Assembly (NCBI GenBank): GCA_001875255.1 | Contig: MJAN01000004.1 | Coordinates: 3,316-67,315, forward strand | Direction: 5' to 3' | Source: Candidatus Sabulitectum silens | GTDB lineage: Bacteria; Fermentibacterota; Fermentibacteria; Fermentibacterales; JCC-6 | DNA: 64,000 nt | Part shown: piece after piece, positions 52,205-64,000 of the stretch | Numbering within the stretch: the stretch's first letter is position 1 | Layout: every line of letters starts with the position of its first letter | Made by a program: the position numbers and the translations under genes | The notes under the pieces: generated by a model | Told to the model about the DNA's origin: nothing | The model's input: only the letters and a program-made list of their open reading frames with translations | The model's database searches: none

Positions 52205-55200
52205 CTATCTTCCACAGCAACGCTTGTATTTTTTGCCGCTGCCGCAGGGGCAGGGGTCGTTACGGCCGACCTTTTCCTCGGTGCGGACAACGGTCTGCTG
52301 CTTCCCCTCGGCGTTCCTGCCTGCCCCTGTCCTGTTGTCCCGGGCAGGGGGCATCGTTACGCCGGGGTGCACCGCCTGTCCGGCGGGACCCTGCTGCCTC
52401 TGTATTTTAGAGGCTGGCCATAATGATAGTATCTGCCTTACGGCCTGTTTGTCAATACCATCCAGTAGGTCCTCAAAGAGATTGAAGGCCTCCTTCTTGT
52501 ATTCAACCAGGGGATCCCGCTGGGCATAGGCCCTCAGGCCGATGCCGGACTTCAGGTGGTCCAGGGCGTATAGATGGTCACGCCACTTGCTGTCGATGGA
52601 GCTGAGGACCGACCACTTCTCGAGGTCGGTGAGCATCCGTTCACCAAGCTTCTCCCTCTTCTTGGAATAGTATTCCATGACCATGTCCACGATCCGGGAA
52701 CGGACCGCTTCGGGATCCCTTGAGAAATCCTCAATTCCCTGGAGCCTGAACATCATTCCAGAGAGGTCCCTGAGTATCACCTCGGCGGCGTCGGGGTTCC
52801 ATTCATGGGGTTCGGTGCCGTCGGGGAAGGCTTCCCTCACGGAGTGATCCGCCACGGCTTTGATCATCTCCTCCACCTCATCGGAAAGCCCCTCGCCGGT
52901 CAGGGCCTGGAGCCTTCTGCCGTATATGACCTCCCGCTGGCGGTTGGCCACGTCGTCGTATTCCAGAAGGTGCTTCCTGATCCCGAAGTGATACTGCTCC
53001 ACCCTTTTCTGGGCCTGCTCAATGGATTTCGTCAGCAGGGGATGCTCAATTGGTGCCCCCTCTTTCTCCTGGCTCTTCTTCAGGAAATCAATGATCTTCT
53101 CGCTGGCGAAGAGCCTGAAGAGGTCGTCTTCCAGGGAGAGATAGAAACGGCTTCCGCCTGGGTCCCCCTGCCTTCCGCTGCGGCCCCTGAGCTGCCGGTC
53201 TATCCGCCTGGATTCATGCCGCTCGGTGCCTATGACGAAGAGACCGCCGTCGATCTTTTCCCCCTCGGGGGTGGTGAGCTGCTTCACCTCCGGGGCCAGC
53301 TTGATGTCGGTGCCCCTTCCCGCCATGTTGGTGGCTATGGTAACGGCGCCCTTTCCACCGGCCCTGGCTATTATCTCCGCCTCCTGCTGGTGGTGTTTCG
53401 CGTTCAGCACACTATGAACTATCTTCCTGCGCTTGAGAAGCTTGGAAAGCAGCTCGGAAACCTCCACGGAAACGGTGCCCACCAGAATGGGCTGACCCAT
53501 GGAATGCCTGTAGGCTATCTCGTCTATTATGGCCGCGTACTTTTCCCTCTTGGAGGCGTAAACCCTGTCGTTGTGATCAACCCTGGCCACCGGTCTGTTG
53601 GTGGGAGCCACCGCCACGCTTATCTCGTAGATGCTTCCGAATTCCTCTTCCTCGGTTTCCGCGGTACCGGTCATGCCGGCGAGTTTTTCGTACATTCTGA
53701 AGTAGTTCTGGATGGTTATGGTTGCCAGCGTCTGGGTCTCACTTCTTATTTCAACGTTCTCCTTGGCCTCCAGGCCTCATGGAGGCCGTCGGAGAACCTT
53801 CTGCCGGGCATTGGTCTTCCGGTGAACTGGTCTACTATCACCACCCTGCCCTGGTCCAGCACATACTCCACATCCTTCTCGTAGAGCTGGTAGGCCTTCA
53901 GAAGCTGGTCGATGTTGTGAAGGGCCTCGGCCCTGCTGGTCTGGTTCTCGTATATCTGCTTTCGAAGTTCGAACTTCTCCGCCTCGGGAAGTTCCTTAGC
54001 CTCGAGTTCCGCCATCTCGTCGCCTATGTCACGAAGCAGGAAGAAGTCGGGATCCTCCGGGGAAAGCATTTTTCGGCCCATGTCCGATACGGAAACGGAT
54101 TTTCCCTCTCGTCGATGGCGAAATAGAGCCCTCGTCAAGTTCATGGATGTTCTTCTCCCGGAGCCTCTCCCCCTCGACCCTTTTCACCGCCGCGGCTATG
54201 TCCGGGTCCCGCAGGGCCTTTGTGAGCCTTCGATGCTTCGGGGCGCCCGCCTGGCCTTCAGGTACATCGTTGCGGCACCGTGGGTGTCGCCCTTTTCCCA
54301 CAGCTCGTTGGCGTCGGCCACTATGGTGTTCAGCAGTTCCGACTGCTTCCGCACGAGCCTGGCCACGGTGGACCGGTATTCCAGGTACTGGTTCCTGTTC
54401 CTGGCAACCGGGCCGCTGATTATGAGGGGGGTCCTTGCCTCGTCGATGAGAACGCTGTCGACCTCGTCCACGATTGCGTAGTGGTAACCCCGCTGGACCC
54501 TCTGCTCAAGCCTTACCGCCATGTTGTCCCGGAGGTAGTCGAAACCGAATTCGCTGTTGGTGCCGTAGGTTATGTCGCAGTTGTACTGCTCACGCCTCTG
54601 GTCCGGGGTCATTCCTCCCTGTATGCAGCCAACGGTGAGGCCCAGATACTGGTAGATGGGACCCATCCAGAGGGAGTCCCGGAGGGCAAGGTAGTCGTTC
54701 ACGGTGACAAGATGGGTGCCCCTGCCAACGGGAATACCCTCAAGGGGCTGAAAGACCCAGCCGTCGTAGTCCTCCCCGAACTCCGCCGAGGCAAGTTCCA
54801 CCCATTCAGGATTGAGGCGCAGGGCGTTGAGATACATGGGAAGCACGGCCACAAGGGTTTTCCCCTCACCGGTGGCCATTTCTGTTATCATGCCCCGGTG
54901 GAGGGTGATGGCGCCCTTCAGCTGAACATCGTAGGGGACCATGTTCCACACCTCGGACCTGCCGGTAACGTTCCATTCCCTGCCCAGGTTCCTCCGGCAG
55001 GCCTCCTTCACCACGGCGAAGGCCTCAACCATGATGTCGTCCACGGTTTCCCCCCGGAGCAGCCTTATCCTGAAGTTCTGAGTTCTGCTCTTCAGTTCCT
55101 CTTCAGAGAGTGACTCAAGTAGGGAGAACTCTTCGTTTATCTCCTGGACGAAGGGCTCCAGGCTCTTCATAAGTTTTGCCTGGCTGTCGCCGAGTATCAT

Positions 55201-55227
55201 TTTAACGAATTTACCAAACTTGCCCAT
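52205..55227 (-). CDS. secA: Preprotein translocase SecA (frameshifts near 54245, 54125 and 53775)
   Basis: [93 protein letters not shown]. Confidence 0.97.
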
Positions 55228-55532
55228 CAGGGAAAATCCTCCATGCATATTTCTGCGGCGGCATAACCGCCCAGGAGGGCCCCGGCCATGTCAGCCAGGA
55301 GATCGGAGGCCTGAAAACCCCCTCCCCTCCACTGGTCGTACAGTTCCTTCAAAAACCCCAGGCCTGCGGTGACTCCGGCGGATTCCAGGGGCCTGGATGT
55401 GGCCGCGGTGCCCAGGGAGGCAGCCGAGGCGGAGAAAGCAAAATGGTTCCACCCGTCGGATTGCATCACAGCGCCGCACCCGGAGAGGAACATAACGAAT
55501 AAAACCGGCGCAACGCACAGGGAAAACCTCAA
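55227..55532 (-). CDS. YfiM-like small membrane lipoprotein
   Basis: Lipobox LSGC; D..NHF..SA, G..KE.YD....GF...DL.AD.AG. Confidence 0.7.
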
Positions 55533-56440
55533 AACGGCTCTCCGAATCCGCTTGAGACCGAAGTGAACTCATTCATAAGGTCAAGGAGTGAATCGGCCCT
55601 CAGGGCCCAGGAGCTGTCTTCGTTCCATACCGAGGAGGCCTCGATGAGATAGGGAATAGCAAGGGACATTCTGTTCTCCCTGACAAGATCACGACCCCTG
55701 AAGTAAAGCATCCAGCCGAGATCCGCCCCGGTTGAGGGTGTCATTCGCAGGGAGTAGGCATTCCTGGAGGCATCCAGGGCAAGATCGTGGTTCTCCAGGG
55801 CAAGGTATACGGATGCGGCGGTCTGCCAGTAATGGAAGTCTTCCTCCCCCATCGCTGAGAGTTCCTGGAAATGAAGCAGGGCCTCTTCGGTCATCCCCTC
55901 CTCCAGGAGCCTGTCCACCAGTATGCTTCTGTAGAACCCCTCACCGGGCGTCAGTTCAACCGCCCGGGAAATGTAGGGAAGGCCCTTTTCCGGAAAAGTA
56001 TGGAAAGCCAGCACCCGGCATCGGCAGCAACAGCCGAATCACTGTTTTCATAGCTTTCAAGGAGCCACATAACAGACGGTCCCCGGGGTTGGCCCAGCTC
56101 CAGTTCCGCCCTGGCGAGCCGGTATCTGCAAACACCGCCCCCGGCCACCAGCGGCGAGTAGCCGATAACCTCGGAGGGCCTTGAGGCCAGTGCCTTCAGA
56201 AGCTCGGCCAGACAGTTCTCGTTGCCGGGGTCGAGTTCCAGGGCGGCAATGGCATAGGATTCCGCTAAATCGGGCATATGTAGCTGGTTGAAACACCAGG
56301 CCGCCCGGTAGAGGGGAAACCAGTCGAGGGGCCTGGACCGGGAACGCCGGACATAATGATCAAGGGCGGCGGTTACATCGCCGCTGTCAAGGGGCGACCC
56401 GCCGGTGGAAAGGAACAGTAGCAGAAGCAGAAGAGCCGTC
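55529..56440 (-). CDS. TPR-containing exported protein (frameshifted)
   Basis: TPR-like fragments 55529..56014 and 55951..56277 plus a hydrophobic signal-like stretch near 56410-56440; start unclear. Confidence 0.55.
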
Positions 56441-56838
56441 TAGAGGCCTCCCAGGTTAAGGTTCTCCTCGGGGAGGACCCCCCTGTAAACGATGGAGAAC
56501 ACCGTTCTGTCCGATGGCCTCCAGTCGAGCTGGAAACCGCCCAGAACATTGCCGAAATCGTTTCCGTCGCTGGAGAAGGTCATCAGACGGGAGTAACCCA
56601 TCTCAACCGTGGCGTCGAGCTTCGGGTGCAGGGCGAAGCGCATGCTTCCCAGGTATGTTCCACGGCCGTAGGAGCCGTACCTGCCCGAGGAATAGGAGAA
56701 GCTGGCCCGGCTGCTGAACTCCGGCTGAAAACCGGACCCGCCCCCCGGGAACCCCACGAGGTTGAAGCCCGAGGGGTCAAGACCGAAGGCCATGGCACCG
56801 GCTGACACAACGAGCAGAAGCATAATAACAGTTCTCAT
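56440..56838 (-). CDS. Secreted beta-rich hypothetical protein
   Basis: Signal peptide MRTVIMLLLVVSAGAMA; RBS GGAGG; alternating beta-strand pattern ending in LDWRPS. Confidence 0.7.
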   Translation of the reverse strand: MRTVIMLLLVVSAGAMAFGLDPSGFNLVGFPGGGSGFQPEFSSRASFSYSSGRYGSYGRGTYLGSMRFALHPKLDATVEMGYSRLMTFSSDGNDFGNVLGGFQLDWRPSDRTVFSIVYRGVLPEENLNLGGL

Positions 56839-56891: not shown

Positions 56892-57176
56892 ATGTTCCAG
56901 CAGAAAACAATGAAGGGCGTTTATGACAGAACTGCAGTACGCAGAGGGCGTGGTTTCAGAAGGGAGCCCGCCGGGGGAATACTTTTCAATGTAGACACCG
57001 GCGACCTCCAGGTGGCCGAGGGTGTTGCCTTCGGCATCTGCGACATGATAGACCACGGAGCCGAAAGGGATGACATTCTGACGGAGCTCAAGAAAAATTA
57101 CCCCGATCAGGACAATATAGAGCAGGACCTTGACCATTTCCTGGATGAACTCCGAAGCCGGGGAGCCCTGGCTTGA
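56892..57176 (+). CDS. PqqD-family RiPP recognition element (ScmD-like)
   Basis: FRRE..GGILFN.DTG......GVA..I...ID......I...L...Y.......DL..FL.EL...G. Confidence 0.85.
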   Translation: MFQQKTMKGVYDRTAVRRGRGFRREPAGGILFNVDTGDLQVAEGVAFGICDMIDHGAERDDILTELKKNYPDQDNIEQDLDHFLDELRSRGALA

Positions 57177-58224
57177 GTGAAGCACCCTACTGGGTCTCCC
57201 CCAGGGAGGCGAACCTGCTCATCACAGGTGGCTGCAACCTGAATTGCCGACACTGCTCTGTGCTAAGCTTCGGTGCCCTGAAGAAAGACCTTTCCCTGAA
57301 GAAATGGGCTGGCATTCTTGACGATCTGGCAGGGAACAAGCTGCTAAAACTCACCATCACTGGGGGCGAGCCCATGGCCAGACCGGACTTCCTCGAGTTC
57401 ATGGAAGAGGTTGCCCGAAGACCATTCAGGTACTCGGTGAACACCAACGGAACACTTGTCACCGGAGCGGTGATCAAAAGCCTCAGGAAGCACTCCGGAA
57501 GGCTGGACGACATAATGGTGAGCCTCGACGGCCCCGACAGGGGAACGATGGACAGCCAGCGGGGGAAAGGGGTATTCGACAGAATGGTCCTTGGAGTGAC
57601 GAAGATAAGGGAAGCCGGTCTTCCCTTCGGTTTTTACTGCACGGTGACCACGCTGAACATAGACAGGCTGGAGGAGACAGCCGAGCTGGCAACCACCCTT
57701 GGTGCAAACTGGATTAAGTTCAACCACTTTCTTCTGGCCGGCCCGGGGCTTGGCCTGGAGATTGTTCCCGGAGCAACAGAGATCACTGGTGCAGGGAAGA
57801 GATTAAAAAAATGTCAGAGTCAGATCCCGGCTTCATACAGGGCTCCATGGTGGAAACCGCCAGTTTCATAGAAACCATAAGGAAAAGGGGCGTTTCAACC
57901 GGGAACAACTCCGCTTTCCATTGCGGAGGGGGTTCACATAAGATAACGGTTTTCCCCGACGGAACCGTTACTCCATGCGACCACCTGCCGGATTACTCAC
58001 TGGGTAACATCCTGGAAAGGCCCCTCATCGATATCCTTCATGGTGAAGAGATGAAAAGGTTCACCGCTTTCGTGAACCAGCCCAAATCCAGCTACCGGGA
58101 ATGCAGGGACTGCGATCTCGCGGGGTTCTGCACCGGCGGCTGCCCGGTGGAGGCCCTTCTTTGGGGCAACAGGCTGAACCCCCACAGGATATCCTGCCTG
58201 AAACCCTGGATGGAAAACCCATGA
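57173..58224 (+). CDS. Radical SAM/SPASM maturase 1 (ScmE-like); frameshift at the A7 run 57805-57811
   Basis: ITGGCNLNCRHC, TGGEP..RPDF, NTNGTL, VSLDG, D..RG.G.F; SPASM C-GG...PDG.V.PC...C..C.....C.GGCP. Confidence 0.88.
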
Positions 58225-59253
58225 CAGAAAAGCCACCCCTGAAGGTCCTCTACATCAACCCCGCCGGGGCTGCAACCTCCACTGCAGCCACTGCTGGGTT
58301 AACGAGGGAACATTCGCCGGAAAACTCCTCACCGTTGATCAGTGGACCGAGCTGCTCAGGCAGGCGGTATTGCTGGGCTGCTCCTACCTGAAGCTCACCG
58401 GCGGAGAGCCCTTGCTCTACCATGGCTTCGTGGAGCTTTACGAAGGGGCTTCGGCAATAATTCCCGATGTTTCCGTGGAAACCAACGGAACACTTGAACC
58501 GGATGGTCTCTGGAGGGCATTTGCCGCGAATCCGCCCCACAATGTATCCATAAGCCTGGACAGCGCCAGCGAGGCAGTACACGATGAGTTCAGAGGCGTG
58601 CCAGGCTCATACAGAAAAACCCTGGCCTCGGGAAAAAGCTCGTGGCCGCCGGGATCCCCGCACAGGTAATCATGTCCATCTCTTCAACCAATCGTGGTCA
58701 GATCATTGGCATGATAGATCTCCTGGAGAAGATCGGCCTGAGGAACCTGAAACTTAACCTCATCACTCCCTCTGGCAGAGGAAAGGTTCTGAGCTTCCTG
58801 AAGGATAATGGTATCAAGGAGATAATGGATTTCCTCGAATGGGCCTTCAATGAGACACCGCCCTGGGTTCTGCCCACGGCTCCCCATGCCCTGACTCCTG
58901 TGAACAGGCTGGTTCAGCAGAGCAGCTGCCCGGTCCTTAACCTCATGGGAGTTCTTCCCGACGGCACCTATTCACTGTGCGGTGTGGCCTTCTCCCGGGG
59001 TGAAATGGCCTGGGGGAAATTCCCTGAAATGACCGTGGGCGAAGCCTGGGAAAACTCCCCTGTGTACAGAAGCATAAGGACCCGGATACCTGACAAGCTG
59101 GAGGGGGTGTGCGGCGATTGCATACACAGGGCGGGGTGCAGGGGAAGCTGCGTTGCCAACAACCTTGTTGCCGGCGGTTCTGTCAGCAGCCCCAACCCCC
59201 TGTGCCAGCTTGCCCTTGACAACGGCCTCTTCCCGAAGACCAGGCTCAGATGA
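58221..59253 (+). CDS. Radical SAM/SPASM maturase 2 (ScmF-like); frameshifts near 58267 and 58635
   Basis: Reconstructed PLKVLYINPAGGCNLHCSHCW, KLTGGEPLL, VSVETNG, SLD, HD.FRG, C....GVL.DG.YSLCG, LEGVCG.C.....C.GSCVA.N...C......FP..RL. Confidence 0.88.
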
Positions 59254-59780
59254 GTTCCCCGGAACGGAGCCTTCTGAGGGCTCTTTGCAGGGCAGTGATC
59301 CCTTCCGGAGCGGTACTGCACTCGTCCTGCGTGGAAAAGAACTCACAGGCATCATTGTTCCTGGGCAGGAGCGGCGGCGGAAAATCCACCATTGCCCACC
59401 TGGTTGCCGACGGCGGGGAGATATTCCTTCTGGAGGACGACGAAACCGTTGTTGCCCGGGGAACCGACGGCACGGTTCGGTGCCTCCCCACCCACAGGAT
59501 AAGGAGGCTCACCGGGGTGGAGCGTATTCCACCCGGTGTTCTCAAGAACCTCTTCTTCGTTGAGAAGGGAAGTGACACCCTGGTTCTTCCCGTTCCCTCA
59601 AAGTACGCCTTTTACAGGGCTGTCAGGATCGGTTCCTTCCTCGGAGCTCAGCTCCTCGATCCGAATGAGAATCATGCCCTTCTCAAGGGTATCCAGTCGA
59701 TCCTCGGCGGGTTTCCCTGCTTTATCGTCAGGTATTCGCCCCCTGTGAACCCCCATGATGTCATTGGAGATATGCTTTGA
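59250..59780 (+). CDS. HPr-kinase-like P-loop protein (ScmC-like)
   Basis: VLHSSCVE......LF.GRSGGGKST...LEDD, L..LFF.EK. Confidence 0.75.
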   Translation: MSSPERSLLRALCRAVIPSGAVLHSSCVEKNSQASLFLGRSGGGKSTIAHLVADGGEIFLLEDDETVVARGTDGTVRCLPTHRIRRLTGVERIPPGVLKNLFFVEKGSDTLVLPVPSKYAFYRAVRIGSFLGAQLLDPNENHALLKGIQSILGGFPCFIVRYSPPVNPHDVIGDML

Positions 59781-60180
59781 GCAGAAAGGGCGAACTTGGC
59801 TGGGTGAGGGGCATTTCCATGTGGCCCAACCTCCTTCCCGGCGACATTCTCAGGGCGGAACCCGTCCCCGCCGGGGACATTCGCCCGGGGATGGTGGTGG
59901 TGTTCCCTGGAAACCGGGCCGGCGGAGGGCCCTTCGTTCACAGGGTTCTCAGTGTGCGAATACTGGGGACAGGGCCTTCATAGCAACCGGCGGTGACCAA
60001 TCCGGAAGGGACGACTTCGTATCAGTATGCGAAAGCCGTCTGGAACTGAAAAGGATCACAGGTGTTCTCATTGCGGGACGGTACAGGAAGGTGGGAAACC
60101 TGAAAGTACCTCAAATGTTGCAAGGCAGGGTCAGGCTTATAAAAATCCACATCAGGATTGCCCGGAAACTTCTTTGGTAG
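59777..60180 (+). CDS. S24/S26 signal-peptidase-like protein (frameshift near 59967)
   Basis: VRGISMWPNLLPGD..., GMVVVF, FVHRV, T.GD...DD. Confidence 0.75.
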
Positions 60181-60207
60181 TATTGTTAAGGGATGAAGGG
60201 AGCGCAT

Positions 60208-60451
60208 ATGGTCTTTTTCCAGATAGATATTCAAAACCCCGCTTCTCTCCATAATAGAAGCCGGATCAACAGGCTGGGGTGCGACCTGCGATGTTGGCAA
60301 TTCTCCCCTCGGAGGAGGTTCCACGTGCAGCACCGGCAATAGAGCGGGATCCTCCGTTCAACCCGGGAAAACAGGCATTTTCAATAGCGGTTCCGAAGAC
60401 CCTGCAAGCAGCAGGCTTATAAACCCCGGGGATGTAAGCCGGGGTCTCTAG
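60208..60451 (+). CDS. Putative RiPP precursor peptide (ScmA-like) with CxxGN repeats; needs two single-base corrections
   Basis: RBS AAGGGAG then ATG at 60208. YSKP is in one frame, and the open frame 60227-60451 reads LLSIIEAGSTGWGATCDVGNSPLGGGSTCSTGNRAGSS... Confidence 0.65.
60423..60445. terminator. Hairpin between convergent genes (possible bidirectional terminator)
   Basis: ACCCCGG-N9-CCGGGGT. Confidence 0.4.
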
Positions 60452-61380
60452 GAATCCTTAGCGGCTCCGGGCTTTCCCAGGGCCGCAAGGGCGATAACAC
60501 CCAGAAGAACGCTGAACCACAGCGTGGCGAAACGCATCAGCAGTGTTGTTACCGTTGCCGCCGCCCCGGGCAGGTAATCCCCCAGTATTCCATCTATGGT
60601 CAGTTCAGTGAGGCCCAGGCCTCCGGGTATCATGGATACCGCCCCGGCCACGCTTCCCGCAGCGTGGGAAAGCAGGGAAATACCCGGGGGAAGACCGTAT
60701 CCCATTGAGGCGGCAACGGCGCTTAGCACCATGGCCTCTATTCCCCATGAGAGCATTCCCAGGGGAATGGACACCGCCATGCTTTTTCCGTTCAGAAGGA
60801 TTACCGCAGCCTCCCTGAAACCCTCGAAGGAATCGTTCCTCCGGGCCATGAAGGGGATCTTTTTCACCAGCTTCTCAAAGAGGCTCCAGGCCCTCCTGTC
60901 AAGCAGTATGAACATTGCAACGGCAACGAACACAACCCCGGCGGCGGAGGCGGGGATGCCCAGGGAGCTGCCTGTGAGAAGGGACCCCAGAAGTGCCAGA
61001 AGGACCATGCTGATAAGGTCCGTGAGTCTTTCGGCAACCACCACCGGGCTGGTCCTTTCCACCGGGATGTTCCGTCGTTTCTTCAATATGCCGCACTTGA
61101 GCAGCTCCCCCATCTTTCCAGGGGAAACCGTCATGGAGAACCCGGCTATGAAAACCAGCAGGCTCTCTCCGAAGGGTACCTTCGCGGTTATCCTGTGAAG
61201 GAAGTAGTGCCATTTCAGGAACCTGAGGAAGTAGTTCGCCAGGGGGAGAACGAGGAACAGGGGTATCCAGCCGGGATGGATTGAGCCGGCGGCCCCCATC
61301 ACCCGGCTGAGGTCGGAATGGAGGACAAGCAGTGTATAAAGGGCTATGGCCGCGATGAGGGCCCAGAGGGCTTTCTTCAT
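60448..61380 (-). CDS. Lysylphosphatidylglycerol synthase TM / UPF0104 flippase-like membrane protein
   Basis: NY.LRF.KW, SPGK.GE, ERL.D, PGGLG.TE, R.ATLW; real start MKKALW at 61380. Confidence 0.85.
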   Translation of the reverse strand: MKKALWALIAAIALYTLLVLHSDLSRVMGAAGSIHPGWIPLFLVLPLANYFLRFLKWHYFLHRITAKVPFGESLLVFIAGFSMTVSPGKMGELLKCGILKKRRNIPVERTSPVVVAERLTDLISMVLLALLGSLLTGSSLGIPASAAGVVFVAVAMFILLDRRAWSLFEKLVKKIPFMARRNDSFEGFREAAVILLNGKSMAVSIPLGMLSWGIEAMVLSAVAASMGYGLPPGISLLSHAAGSVAGAVSMIPGGLGLTELTIDGILGDYLPGAAATVTTLLMRFATLWFSVLLGVIALAALGKPGAAKDS

Positions 61381-62180
61381 TACTCGCCCGGGTCCGGCCC
61401 TTCCCCCGAAAGTACCAGAAGCTCCTCCTGAAGCTTCTTCGTTCCGGGCTGGGAGTCCAGTATCTTCAGGGCCTTTGCCGCAAGCCTTTTTGCCTCCCGG
61501 GGATCGTTCAGCTTCATGGAGCATCTTGCGGCCAGGCCAAAGGCCTGTGCCCTGCCCATTTTCGTTATGGGGCTGTCGGGAAGGAGTTCCGCAGAGGTTA
61601 TGGCGTGCATCCTGGCCCTGGAGTAGTCATCCTTCTTCATGTGAAGCATGGCCATGTTGAGATACACTCCGCTCTTTCCGGCGCCGTCCCTTTGCTCCAG
61701 GGCTTCTTCAAGGAGTTTCTCCGCCTCGTCCAGCCTCTCGTCAGCGTTTATCAGAAGTCCCGCCAGGTTCACCTTCATGGTCCCGGCCAGCTTCTCGTCG
61801 GTTTCTATGGCCCGGCGGTAGAACTTTTCCGCGTCGGCGTGGTCGCCCCTCTGCTGGGCTATGTAGGCCATCTGGGCCATGGCGGTCCCGCTGCCGTCGC
61901 CGGCACCCATTGCCTCCACCACCACCTTTTCCGCCCTGTCGGCGTCACCGCTCCTTATGAAATAGAAAACCAGGGCATTGGTAAGGGGGCAGGAGACCCT
62001 TTTTCTGTCTCTGTTGGCCTCGAGGTAGGCTATCATCTCGTCAACCTTCCCCGCCGCCGCCATTTCGGAGGCCTTCTTCAGCTGCTTCTGCTTCCATACG
62101 GGCGACTTTATCAGCCGGTATCCCAGAAAGACCGCCGCCGCGAGGAAAACCCCGGCTATGAGGAAAAGAAAGTTCTCCAT
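61380..62180 (-). CDS. Membrane-anchored TPR protein
   Basis: N-terminal TM ([20 protein letters not shown]) then TPR repeats; RBS GGAGG. Confidence 0.75.
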
Positions 62181-62181
62181 G

Positions 62182-64000
62182 TCAGATCCCTCCTCCACCG
62201 AAGTTCCTGTCGAATCGGAAAACTCTCCCAGTGTGGTGTCCGCGGAAAAACCGGTGCTGTCGGTGTGCAGCATGCAGGTTTCCGTGGGCGCCGTCCCCTT
62301 CCAGAAGTATTCTTCCCTGGAAAGCTCCGCGCATGCGCGTTGGCAAGCTGCCCTGTGATCCCGCAGATAATAGCCTGTTCCAGCTCGTCGGGCTCAGGAC
62401 CTGGGAATGTGGGAGCGGTGGACCGGTCGGCATCGGCGAATACCCTGCGCATGAAGCTGTTCCAGATGGGGAGCCCTATGCTGCTTCCCGACTGCCCACG
62501 GCCGTTCTTCAGCCGCATCCTGATTATGTGGTTGTCGTAGCCAACCCAGACCGATGCCACGAGGTCCGGGGTGAACCCAACGAACCAGGCGTCGGCGTAG
62601 TCGCTTGTGGTGCCTGTTTTGCCCCCGGCCTCCCTGCCGGCGTAGGGGCCTCCCCAGTACCATCCGCGCCGGCACCGGTACCAGACCTCAGTACCGACTG
62701 GAGCATGCTGTTCATCAGAAAGGCTCCGGTAACGCTGAGGACCCTCCTGCCCGGGTCCGGCCGTTCGTTGCTCTCCAGAAGATTTCCCATGCGGTCCTCA
62801 ACCCTGAGAATGGCCGTTGTGTTCATGGCGAGCCGCCTGTGGCGAATGGAATGTATGCCCTTGCCATCTCCAGGGGGTTGGCGTAGCAGCTGCCCAGGGG
62901 CAGGGAGTTCACTATGGGAAGCCTTGAGGTAATGCCCATGGAAACCGCCCTGGCGGCTCCGGTCTCTATTCCAACGGCATCCCCCAGTCTTACCGCGCTC
63001 ACATTGTATGACCGTGCCAGGGCTTCACGGAGGGTAACCATGCCATGGAACTGAAGGTCGTAGTTCCTGGGGCGCCAGGTGCCCGGGTTAAGGTCTACCA
63101 CCACCGGCTGATCCAGAATGACACTTCCCGGGGACCAGCCCTGTTCTATGGCCTCGGCGTAGTAGAAGGGCTTGAATGAACTGCCGGGCTGCCTTCTGGC
63201 CTGGGTTGCCCTGTTGAACTCGCTGTCCTGGAAATCCCTTCCCCCGACCATCGCCCGTATGTAGCCTGTGGTGGGATCCACGGCCACCAGGCTCCCTGAA
63301 TGTAGTCCGGAGCCCCTGAGGTGGTGTCCTTCACCGCCTGCCAGTGTTCCCATGAGCTGTTGTAACGAAGCCGGTCGGTGCTTTCGCTCCAGGTACCGGT
63401 TTCAGGGTCCCAGACCGGTTCCTTGGAGGTTAGAACGCTGTCTATGGCCATTCTGGCGTGCTCCTGCATTTCCGGGTCCAGTGTGGTGTGCACCACGAGA
63501 CCCTGCTCGTACACCGCTGACCAGCCATATCGGCCCACGAGATATTGCCTTACATACTCGGTGAAATAATCCCAGTCCTGCTCCAGTTCATAACGGTGGA
63601 CCTCCACCGCCAGGGGCAGCGAGGAAGCCTCCTGCCTCTGTTCCGGTGAAATGACGCCGTGATCGGCCATCATGGATAGGGCTATGTTGCGCTGGGCCAG
63701 GCACCTGTCAGGATTCCTGAGGGGATTGAAACCGCTGGGGTTCTTTACCATTCTAACCAGTACCGCCGACTGGGCAAGGGTGAGTTCCGCGGCGGAAATG
63801 CCCCCGAAGTATGTGCGGGCGGCGGCTTCTATTCCATGGGCTCCGGACCCGTAGTAGATCTGGTTCAGGTACATCTCCAGTATCTCATCCTTGCTGAACT
63901 GCCGCTCGATCTCCATGGCGATGAAGGCCTCCTGGAGCTTCCTCTGGAAGGTCTGGTCCTGAACCAGGAAAAGCCCCCGGGAAAGCTGCTGGGTAATGGT
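62182..64000 (-). CDS. Class A penicillin-binding protein 1A (5' end beyond window; several frameshifts)
   Basis: [24 protein letters not shown]...[34 protein letters not shown]. Confidence 0.92.

Follow-up and report, generated by a model that had tools for sequence, protein, structure and literature searches.

The window analyzed here, a contiguous stretch of 64,000 nucleotides from Candidatus Sabulitectum silens, holds a gene for a precursor peptide of about 81 residues (60208..60451 on the + strand, stop codon included), which is spread over three reading frames in the present assembly. It is preceded on the same strand by a closely packed cassette that opens with a PqqD-like discrete RRE (56923..57176; 32.3 bits with Pfam PqqD, whose cut-off is 23.4), the N-terminus of which (ATG at 56923) is encoded in a different frame as far as a T3 run, so that a further frameshift probably exists near 56953. 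Next come two radical SAM/SPASM enzymes, one ScmE-like (57173..58224, frameshift near 57804) and one ScmF-like (58202..59253, frameshifts near 58265 and 58627), a ScmC/HprK-related P-loop protein of 176 aa (59250..59780; TIGR04249 26.3 bits where the cut-off is 125, TIGR04352 20.5 bits) and a protein resembling signal peptidase I of the archaeal type (59777..60180, frameshift near 59964). The last of these scores 24.9 bits against TIGR02228, and its orthologue in the related genome G015 scores 41.8 bits against the same model, with a cut-off of 51.85. From the downstream side the gene of a flippase-like membrane protein converges on the peptide gene (60448..61524 on the - strand; 81.5 bits with TIGR00374, whose cut-off is 43.2), and that of a TPR protein also converges. 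The peptide stop TAG and the flippase-like gene stop share the palindrome CTAG (60448-60451), and since the two stops overlap there, no spacer or terminator lies between the two genes; in relatives, the gap between the same two genes is mostly -4 to 73 nt. At the other end, the cassette is flanked by a conserved protein of 132 aa, hydrophobic at its N-terminus (56440-56838, - strand), that has no Pfam or NCBIfam match and whose homologue is placed after the peptidase gene in three related genomes (G005, G003, and G013).

A Shine-Dalgarno-like AAGGGAG (60196..60202, + strand) can be read directly in front of the peptide gene, and the ATG at 60208 begins 5 nt downstream of it; relatives carry GGAG or AAAGGA at the equivalent place. 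From this ATG the coding sequence starts in frame 1, passes into frame 0 for LFPDRYSKP (60213-60239), and continues in frame 2 from 60242 to the stop. The first frame break falls in a T5 run that is one T short (60214..60218) and the second at 60240..60241, where one G is missing behind the C4 part of an A4/C4 run (60233-60240 by direct reading). Frame 2 is open over 60227-60448, with its stop at 60449-60451, but it contains no ATG, GTG, or TTG, and for this reason the stretch is missing from the ORF lists. A preliminary description of this DNA had proposed a hidden precursor absent from the ORF track, which would become readable after two single-base repairs and whose uncorrected ATG frame would yield only 44 aa. 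Direct reading bears out the absence from the track, the length of 44 aa, and the coordinates given for the ribosome binding site, the ATG, the T5 and A4/C4 runs, and two TCxxGN units (60284-60301 and 60323-60340, both in one open frame), while the need for two repairs is backed by the homologous loci and read contigs discussed below. A second in-frame ATG is found at 60193; we consider it a less likely start than 60208, as the peptides of relatives begin 1-3 residues ahead of the F-P dipeptide.

Intact counterparts of the gene were found in related genomes, where the preliminary description had suggested looking for a similar peptide; they lie directly after the peptidase gene. Two genomes of the same genus each hold a small gene at this place that encodes, in a single frame, the peptide reconstructed beforehand from the window, and when one such peptide served as query against 60 genomes of the family, 40 of them gave matches at E <= 0.1, the source genome included. 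From 30 genomes we extracted 34 clean homologous genes, 31 of which start with ATG, two with TTG, and one with CTG, many of them behind a GGAG-type site. The homologue of G015 (locus L017, 3446-3703) has no ATG, GTG, or TTG ahead of F-P and offers a CTG 6 nt after AAAGGAG; its start is either this CTG or reflects an assembly error. The peptides of the relatives were aligned together with the frame-2 piece of the window, which aligns over its full length (alignment A1), and the consensus reads M-x-x-F-P-E-x-Y-x-K-P-x-L ... A-x-x-x-G-W-x-A-x-C-x-x-G-x-x-P ... C-x-x-G ... R-L-x-N-P-x-x-V-x-x-G-L. Seven columns (F, L, G, W, A, and two Cys) show no variation, five of them within the first 27 residues, and Y, K, and P are present in at least 90% of the rows. 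After the first Cys, the length varies and the number of Cys ranges from 2 to 5, giving the family the build of a conserved leader followed by a variable core. The leader carries YxxPxL, the block GWxAxC and 2-5 CxxG units follow, and a tail ending in GL closes the peptide.

In the window, the leader motif Y-x-K-P-x-L occupies 60228..60244 on the + strand and crosses the second frame break. The preliminary description had recognized it as a YxxPxL leader, and the alignment agrees, L being invariant and both Y and P occurring in 90% or more of the rows. The G-W-x-A-x-C block with its invariant G, W, A, and C (60272..60289) holds the putative end of the leader together with the first Cys of the core, and the two CxxG units, CDVG and CSTG (60287..60334), make up a core rich in Cys and Gly. 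CxxG units are general in the family: among 33 relatives a Gly stands at position +3 of 76 of 89 Cys, and Gly makes up 21.5% of the residues in this region. The tandem TCxxGN cores that had been proposed therefore hold as to CxxG, while the flanking T and N are peculiar to the window. The extension without Cys at the C-terminus, once thought to be a possible follower, is genuine and conserved: its tail of 13 residues (60410..60448) is identical to that of the relative G010 at 13 of 13 positions, although 9 of the 13 codons differ, all at the third position and all synonymously. Judged by this codon comparison, the tail is under purifying selection. The structural model of the peptide is disordered (pLDDT 0.39), and a signal peptide is absent.

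We built a profile from the peptides of 33 relatives, leaving out the window row, and compared it with every stop-to-stop frame of 10 aa or more that the window contains, 2279 in number. Far beyond chance, the frame-2 piece matched with 50.8 bits and E = 2.1e-14 over profile positions 12-80; the second-best of all frames was the frame-0 piece, whose LFPDRYSKPR falls on profile positions 3-12 with E = 0.6, and every other frame had E > 1. The gene thus exists and is conserved. General databases know the family poorly. No Pfam or NCBIfam model matches the frame-2 piece of the window at E <= 10 and none reaches its cut-off for other members, matches in the ESM Atlas stay below 0.9 and lead to unnamed clusters, and a word-indexed protein search with A1 returned 13 proteins whose sole name is "hypothetical protein." Used singly as queries in the same type of search, the peptides P0002 and P0053 retrieved nothing but themselves. 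A profile search of 1.84 billion representative proteins gave 52 matches at E <= 0.001, 28 of them at E <= 1e-10. Comparison at the DNA level was uninformative for the peptide because the DNA is too diverged among the 40 relatives searched, where only a conserved motif of the peptidase was recovered.

Two side observations concern the make-up of the family. Four loci (L045 of G011, L041 of G054, L028 of G072, and L036 of G074) hold two tandem peptide genes with unlike cores and like leaders and tails. Long repeat proteins, among them P0030 (1674 aa), P0045, P0050 (442 aa), and four more, contain 4-7 matches each to the peptide profile; the repeats of P0030 and P0050 each contain G-W-x-L-x-x-A-x-C-x-x-G-x-x-P ... 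C, which may be due to chance, convergence, or shared origin.

The source genome assembly amounts to 2.9 Mb in 95 contigs and is 71% complete. Four of the five cassette genes of the window are split between frames, seven frame breaks lie inside 3.6 kb, and outside the cassette SecA runs in two frames and a penicillin-binding protein is in four pieces (53746-55248 and 62156-64000, both on the - strand). As these four cassette genes, SecA, and the penicillin-binding protein are all split in this way, the assembly is full of single-base errors; it seems to under-call runs of identical bases, with breaks spaced roughly 500-700 bases apart in the parts examined. The breaks could be compared with reads through independently built contigs of four public metagenome runs (X1-X4), which belong to one bioreactor-metagenome study, possibly including the source of the window itself, and are therefore not independent. 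Over 57100-60700 the contigs differ from the window almost solely by inserted bases, the one single-base deletion being at 58470 in X3 alone. In the ScmE-like gene the insertion at 57804 is A (X2) or AA (X1), in the ScmF-like gene G is inserted at 58265 in all four runs and T at 58627 in X2 only, and in the peptidase-like gene G is inserted at 59964 in all four runs. In the peptide gene T is inserted at 60213 (X1, X2, and X3, with X4 lacking coverage) and G at 60240 (X2 only). All six sites coincide with frame breaks predicted from the proteins of relatives, and four of the six insertions sit in runs of at least four identical bases.

Run X2 has the greatest depth, and a script that introduced its six insertions into the window yielded whole ORFs of 350 aa for the ScmE-like enzyme, 384 aa for the ScmF-like enzyme, 134 aa for the peptidase, and 81 aa for the peptide; the repaired peptide matched the profile of the relatives with 74.8 bits and E = 6.9e-22 over positions 1-80. 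The first insertion in the peptide gene, which turns the T5 run into T6 as the preliminary description had foreseen, joins F-P-D-R-Y-S-K-P to the frame of ATG 60208 and is present in the contigs of three runs. The second repair was foreseen in part. An extra base near the C4 run is indeed required, and the DNA alignment with G010, G001, and G002 shows a one-base gap at 60240-60241, but the fifth C that was to give K-P-P was discarded, for the read contigs give a G. With this G inserted behind 60240, K-P is followed by Arg instead of Pro, the Arg codon standing between K-P and L-L, and the resulting K-P-R-L occurs in G011 too. The inspection of reads at 60214-60240 that had been advised, made here on assembled contigs, showed the extra T in three runs and the extra G in X2 alone, where the unitig with the G has a depth of 28 against 9.57, 7, and 2 for unitigs without it; the contigs of X1 (depth 13.1) and X4 (depth 2.7) lack the G, and X3 does not span the site. 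The second insertion is less well supported than the first, and a true null allele at 60240 in part of the population is conceivable.

Carried further, these data would fit a gene that belongs to a real family and is nevertheless a true pseudogene in this strain, the break at 60240 being present in the cells and leaving a stub of 15 residues. The X1 and X4 contigs without the extra G speak for such decay, as do the minority unitigs of X2, which may represent a second allele. We consider it improbable. Base runs are read unreliably in these data, as seen at 57804, where X1 has AA and X2 has A and the single A alone restores the ScmE-like frame; the breaks in SecA and the penicillin-binding protein speak for errors rather than decay; all six insertions of X2 restore frames; and the tail, which lies downstream of the break, has only synonymous changes relative to G010. 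The gene is, in our reading, broken by assembly errors, and we put at roughly 0.85 the probability that 60208-60451 is a genuine RiPP precursor gene of about 81 residues hidden by two bases dropped from the assembly. Errors of this kind in base runs of assemblies cause short precursor genes to be lost from gene calls.

According to the NCBI taxonomy, Ca. Sabulitectum belongs to the phylum Candidatus Fermentibacterota, represented by 70 genomes in the collection searched, and matches of the ScmC-like protein include Candidatus Sabulitectum, Fermentibacteraceae, and Aegiribacteria. The peptide profile matches 38 of the 70 genomes at E <= 0.001 and the PqqD-like protein 46 at E <= 1e-5; 36 genomes have both, two the peptide alone, 10 the PqqD-like protein alone, and 22 neither, counts to which we applied no significance test because related genomes are not independent. 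One of those with the peptide and no PqqD detected is G008, a genome 90% complete. In 22 relatives the PqqD-like gene is found some 2-3.3 kb upstream of the peptide on the same contig and strand; it is divergent at a distance of 1.6-4.7 kb in four and on a different contig in nine. A peptidase gene on the same strand is found within 700 nt upstream of 25 of the 34 peptides, and two of the other nine have too little flanking sequence. The gene is thereby linked to the cassette, and the combination of a small gene and conserved linkage to maturases that is generic to RiPP precursors is seen in 25 of 34 peptides and 36 of 38 genomes. Inverted cassettes, with PqqD divergent at 1.6-4.7 kb, are seen in members of the genus at L031/L069 (G005), L034/L072 (G007), L027/L077 (G006), and L025/L068 (G018); in G014 (L038, L019), the cassette is on a separate contig and adjoins an ABC transporter.

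The downstream neighbor invites another explanation, in which the peptide is a small protein working in concert with the two convergent genes, flippase-like and TPR, for instance at the cell envelope, and is no substrate of the radical SAM enzymes. A convergent flippase-like gene lies within 700 nt of 28 of the 34 peptides, slightly more often than the upstream peptidase (both neighbors are present for 21 of the 34), and in seven relatives of the same genus the peptide still adjoins the flippase-like gene and the cassette is inverted or located elsewhere. We hold this to be very improbable, given that the peptides have the build of RiPP precursors, with a YxxPxL leader, a variable core rich in Cys and Gly, tandem copies in four genomes, no signal peptide, and a disordered model, and that a PqqD-like gene is present in 36 of the 38 genomes that bear the peptide. 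Furthermore, three genomes (G043, G046, and G058) have both cassette and peptide, and their downstream flank of about 1.4 kb contains no flippase-like gene, the peptide of G043 being followed by an ABC transporter, and similar peptides lie inside the cassette at loci of other phyla. None of the RNA runs contains the stretch of the window, and the search found no RNA or protein evidence for the peptide. That there is no gene at all, and that its features arose by chance in a 267-nt spacer between convergent genes or belong to an RNA element, is refuted, despite the frame that lacks a start codon as assembled, by the match to a profile built without the window and by the purely synonymous divergence of the tail; within 59900-60700, moreover, neither an Rfam match (E <= 1) nor a terminator-like site was found.

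Returning to the peptide as a genuine precursor, one of its closest relations among described systems is with SynChlorMet, which is covered by the models TIGR04248 (ScmD), TIGR04249 (ScmC), TIGR04250 (ScmE), TIGR04251 (ScmF), and TIGR04252 (ScmA), with cut-offs of 100, 125, 400, 400, and 35 bits, respectively. Within NCBIfam, the two window enzymes match ScmE and ScmF best, in the same order along the DNA, a PqqD-like protein and a ScmC/HprK-like P-loop protein are common to both cassettes, and like ScmA the window peptide is small with Cys/Gly repeats of the CxxG type. The likeness has clear bounds, as even the intact proteins of G015 miss the enzyme cut-offs (183 bits for the ScmE-like and 235.9 bits for the ScmF-like protein) and this genome shows no ScmC match at E <= 1e-5 and no ScmD match. 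The resemblance to ScmA claimed in the preliminary description proves weak and below threshold. Four of the 34 members match TIGR04252 at E <= 10, the best with E = 7.2e-4, none of the 60 genomes reaches the cut-off, and a few members align from the first position of the model; since the model also matches 9 of 14 control genomes at E <= 1, these matches are near noise level. The family further differs from ScmA in its conserved C-terminal tail, and the cassette differs from SynChlorMet in its gene order, the precursor being last, after the signal-peptidase-like gene. The precursor family is thus an unnamed one, belonging to a SynChlorMet-like cassette with an additional RRE, signal-peptidase, and HprK-like module. 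Literature searches found no paper on the SynChlorMet cassette and none joining HPr kinase, PqqD, radical SAM, and a precursor peptide, and those on ScmE, ScmF, and the models TIGR04249-04252 and on Fermentibacter and radical SAM gave nothing relevant as judged by title.

The additional module recalls the LPP clusters of Bacillota, where a discrete RRE was experimentally shown to bind a YxxP leader and present it to an archaeal-type signal peptidase, and a HprK-like kinase phosphorylates Ser3 of the core (PMC13381572). The peptidase, the RRE, and the P-loop protein of the LPP gene set are all present in the window cassette, while the LPP NTP transferase and MsbA-like exporter have no counterpart within 56892-60451, and the P-loop protein here is short (170-196 aa), unlike the HprK-like kinase of LPP. 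Both leaders contain Y-x-x-P-x-[L/V], and the aromatic residue described at position -3 of the LPP cut finds a parallel in the invariant W three residues ahead of the invariant A of the present family; the LPP leader runs on as VLxHQxIxFET, which our family lacks (PMC13381572). Of the full LPP consensus YxxPxVLxHQxIxFETxxS, alignment A1 thus shares Y-x-x-P-x-L alone. Radical SAM has 0 occurrences in the LPP paper (PMC13381572).

A profile of 29 PqqD-like proteins had a single solved match, the lasso RRE TbiB1 (PDB 5V1U/5V1V, E = 2.3e-4), and the cassette is unlike lasso systems in having no cyclase and no B2 protease, modification by radical SAM enzymes and cleavage by a serine peptidase being predicted instead. 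For both radical SAM enzymes the best solved match is SkfB (6EFN; 58.8 and 57.6 bits), followed by PqqE and by 5WGG, a radical SAM protein that we take to be CteB. The matches to SkfB and 5WGG are weak and cover mostly the radical SAM core, so that the likeness to sactipeptides and ranthipeptides consists of these and a Cys-rich substrate, and the chemistry could be of the PqqE type or another instead of thioether formation.

From these comparisons a pathway may be proposed. The leader F-P-x-x-Y-x-K-P-x-L would be bound by the PqqD-like RRE through Y-x-x-P-x-L, by analogy with the recognition motif [Y/W]xxPx[L/V/I/F/A] given for lasso RREs in the LPP paper (PMC13381572). The RRE would then hand the core rich in Cys and Gly, with its CxxG units after GWxAxC, to the ScmE-like and ScmF-like radical SAM/SPASM enzymes, and these two would most likely cross-link Cys, probably into thioethers, a step to which we attach low confidence. 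The HprK-related P-loop protein may phosphorylate the peptide, as its LPP counterpart does. Removal of the leader would fall to the archaeal-type signal-peptidase-like protein, in dependence on the RRE as in the LPP of Bacillota, and one might guess that the cut falls after GWxA, so that W would occupy position -3 and A position -1, to be compared with F and T in LPP (PMC13381572). We tentatively suggest, as a reading somewhat short of an even chance, a new class of RiPPs, present in Candidatus Fermentibacterota and certain other anaerobes, in which two machineries until now described separately would be fused, an LPP-type module and a SynChlorMet-type enzyme pair acting on CxxG units, and a cross-linked product keeping the tail that ends in GL would perhaps be handed to the flippase-like neighbor.

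LPPs are described as restricted to Bacillota (PMC13381572, Nat Commun 2026). The present cassette suggests that leader removal by an archaeal-type signal peptidase guided by an RRE takes place in a further phylum as well and is joined there to radical SAM enzymes. The family also provides a candidate substrate for SynChlorMet-type cassettes, for which curated enzyme models exist and our literature searches found no published chemistry, and with 34 intact examples and the invariant W, A, and two Cys, the chemistry of the cassette becomes directly testable.

Beyond the phylum, two distant loci were found through an alignment of the ScmC-like protein, L142 from Thermodesulfobacteriota and L127 from Candidatus Desulfatibia. 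Both encode peptides with W-P-x-x-Y-E-x-P-R-V followed by CxxG units between the ScmC-like and peptidase-like genes, and hhalign relates them to A1 with probabilities of 72% (L142) and 56% (L127). L142 contains just one ScmF-like enzyme (303 bits), and the convergent ORF that follows its last gene encodes an MsbA-like ABC exporter. The gene order in L142 (2994-10304) and L127 (628-7962) is PqqD/ScmD-like, ScmF-like, a long ScmC-like protein, the CxxG peptide, signal-peptidase-like, and a protein of 385-389 aa that has no NCBIfam match in L142. Going by their gene content, both look like a one-enzyme cousin of the window cassette. A large convergent ORF ends both loci.
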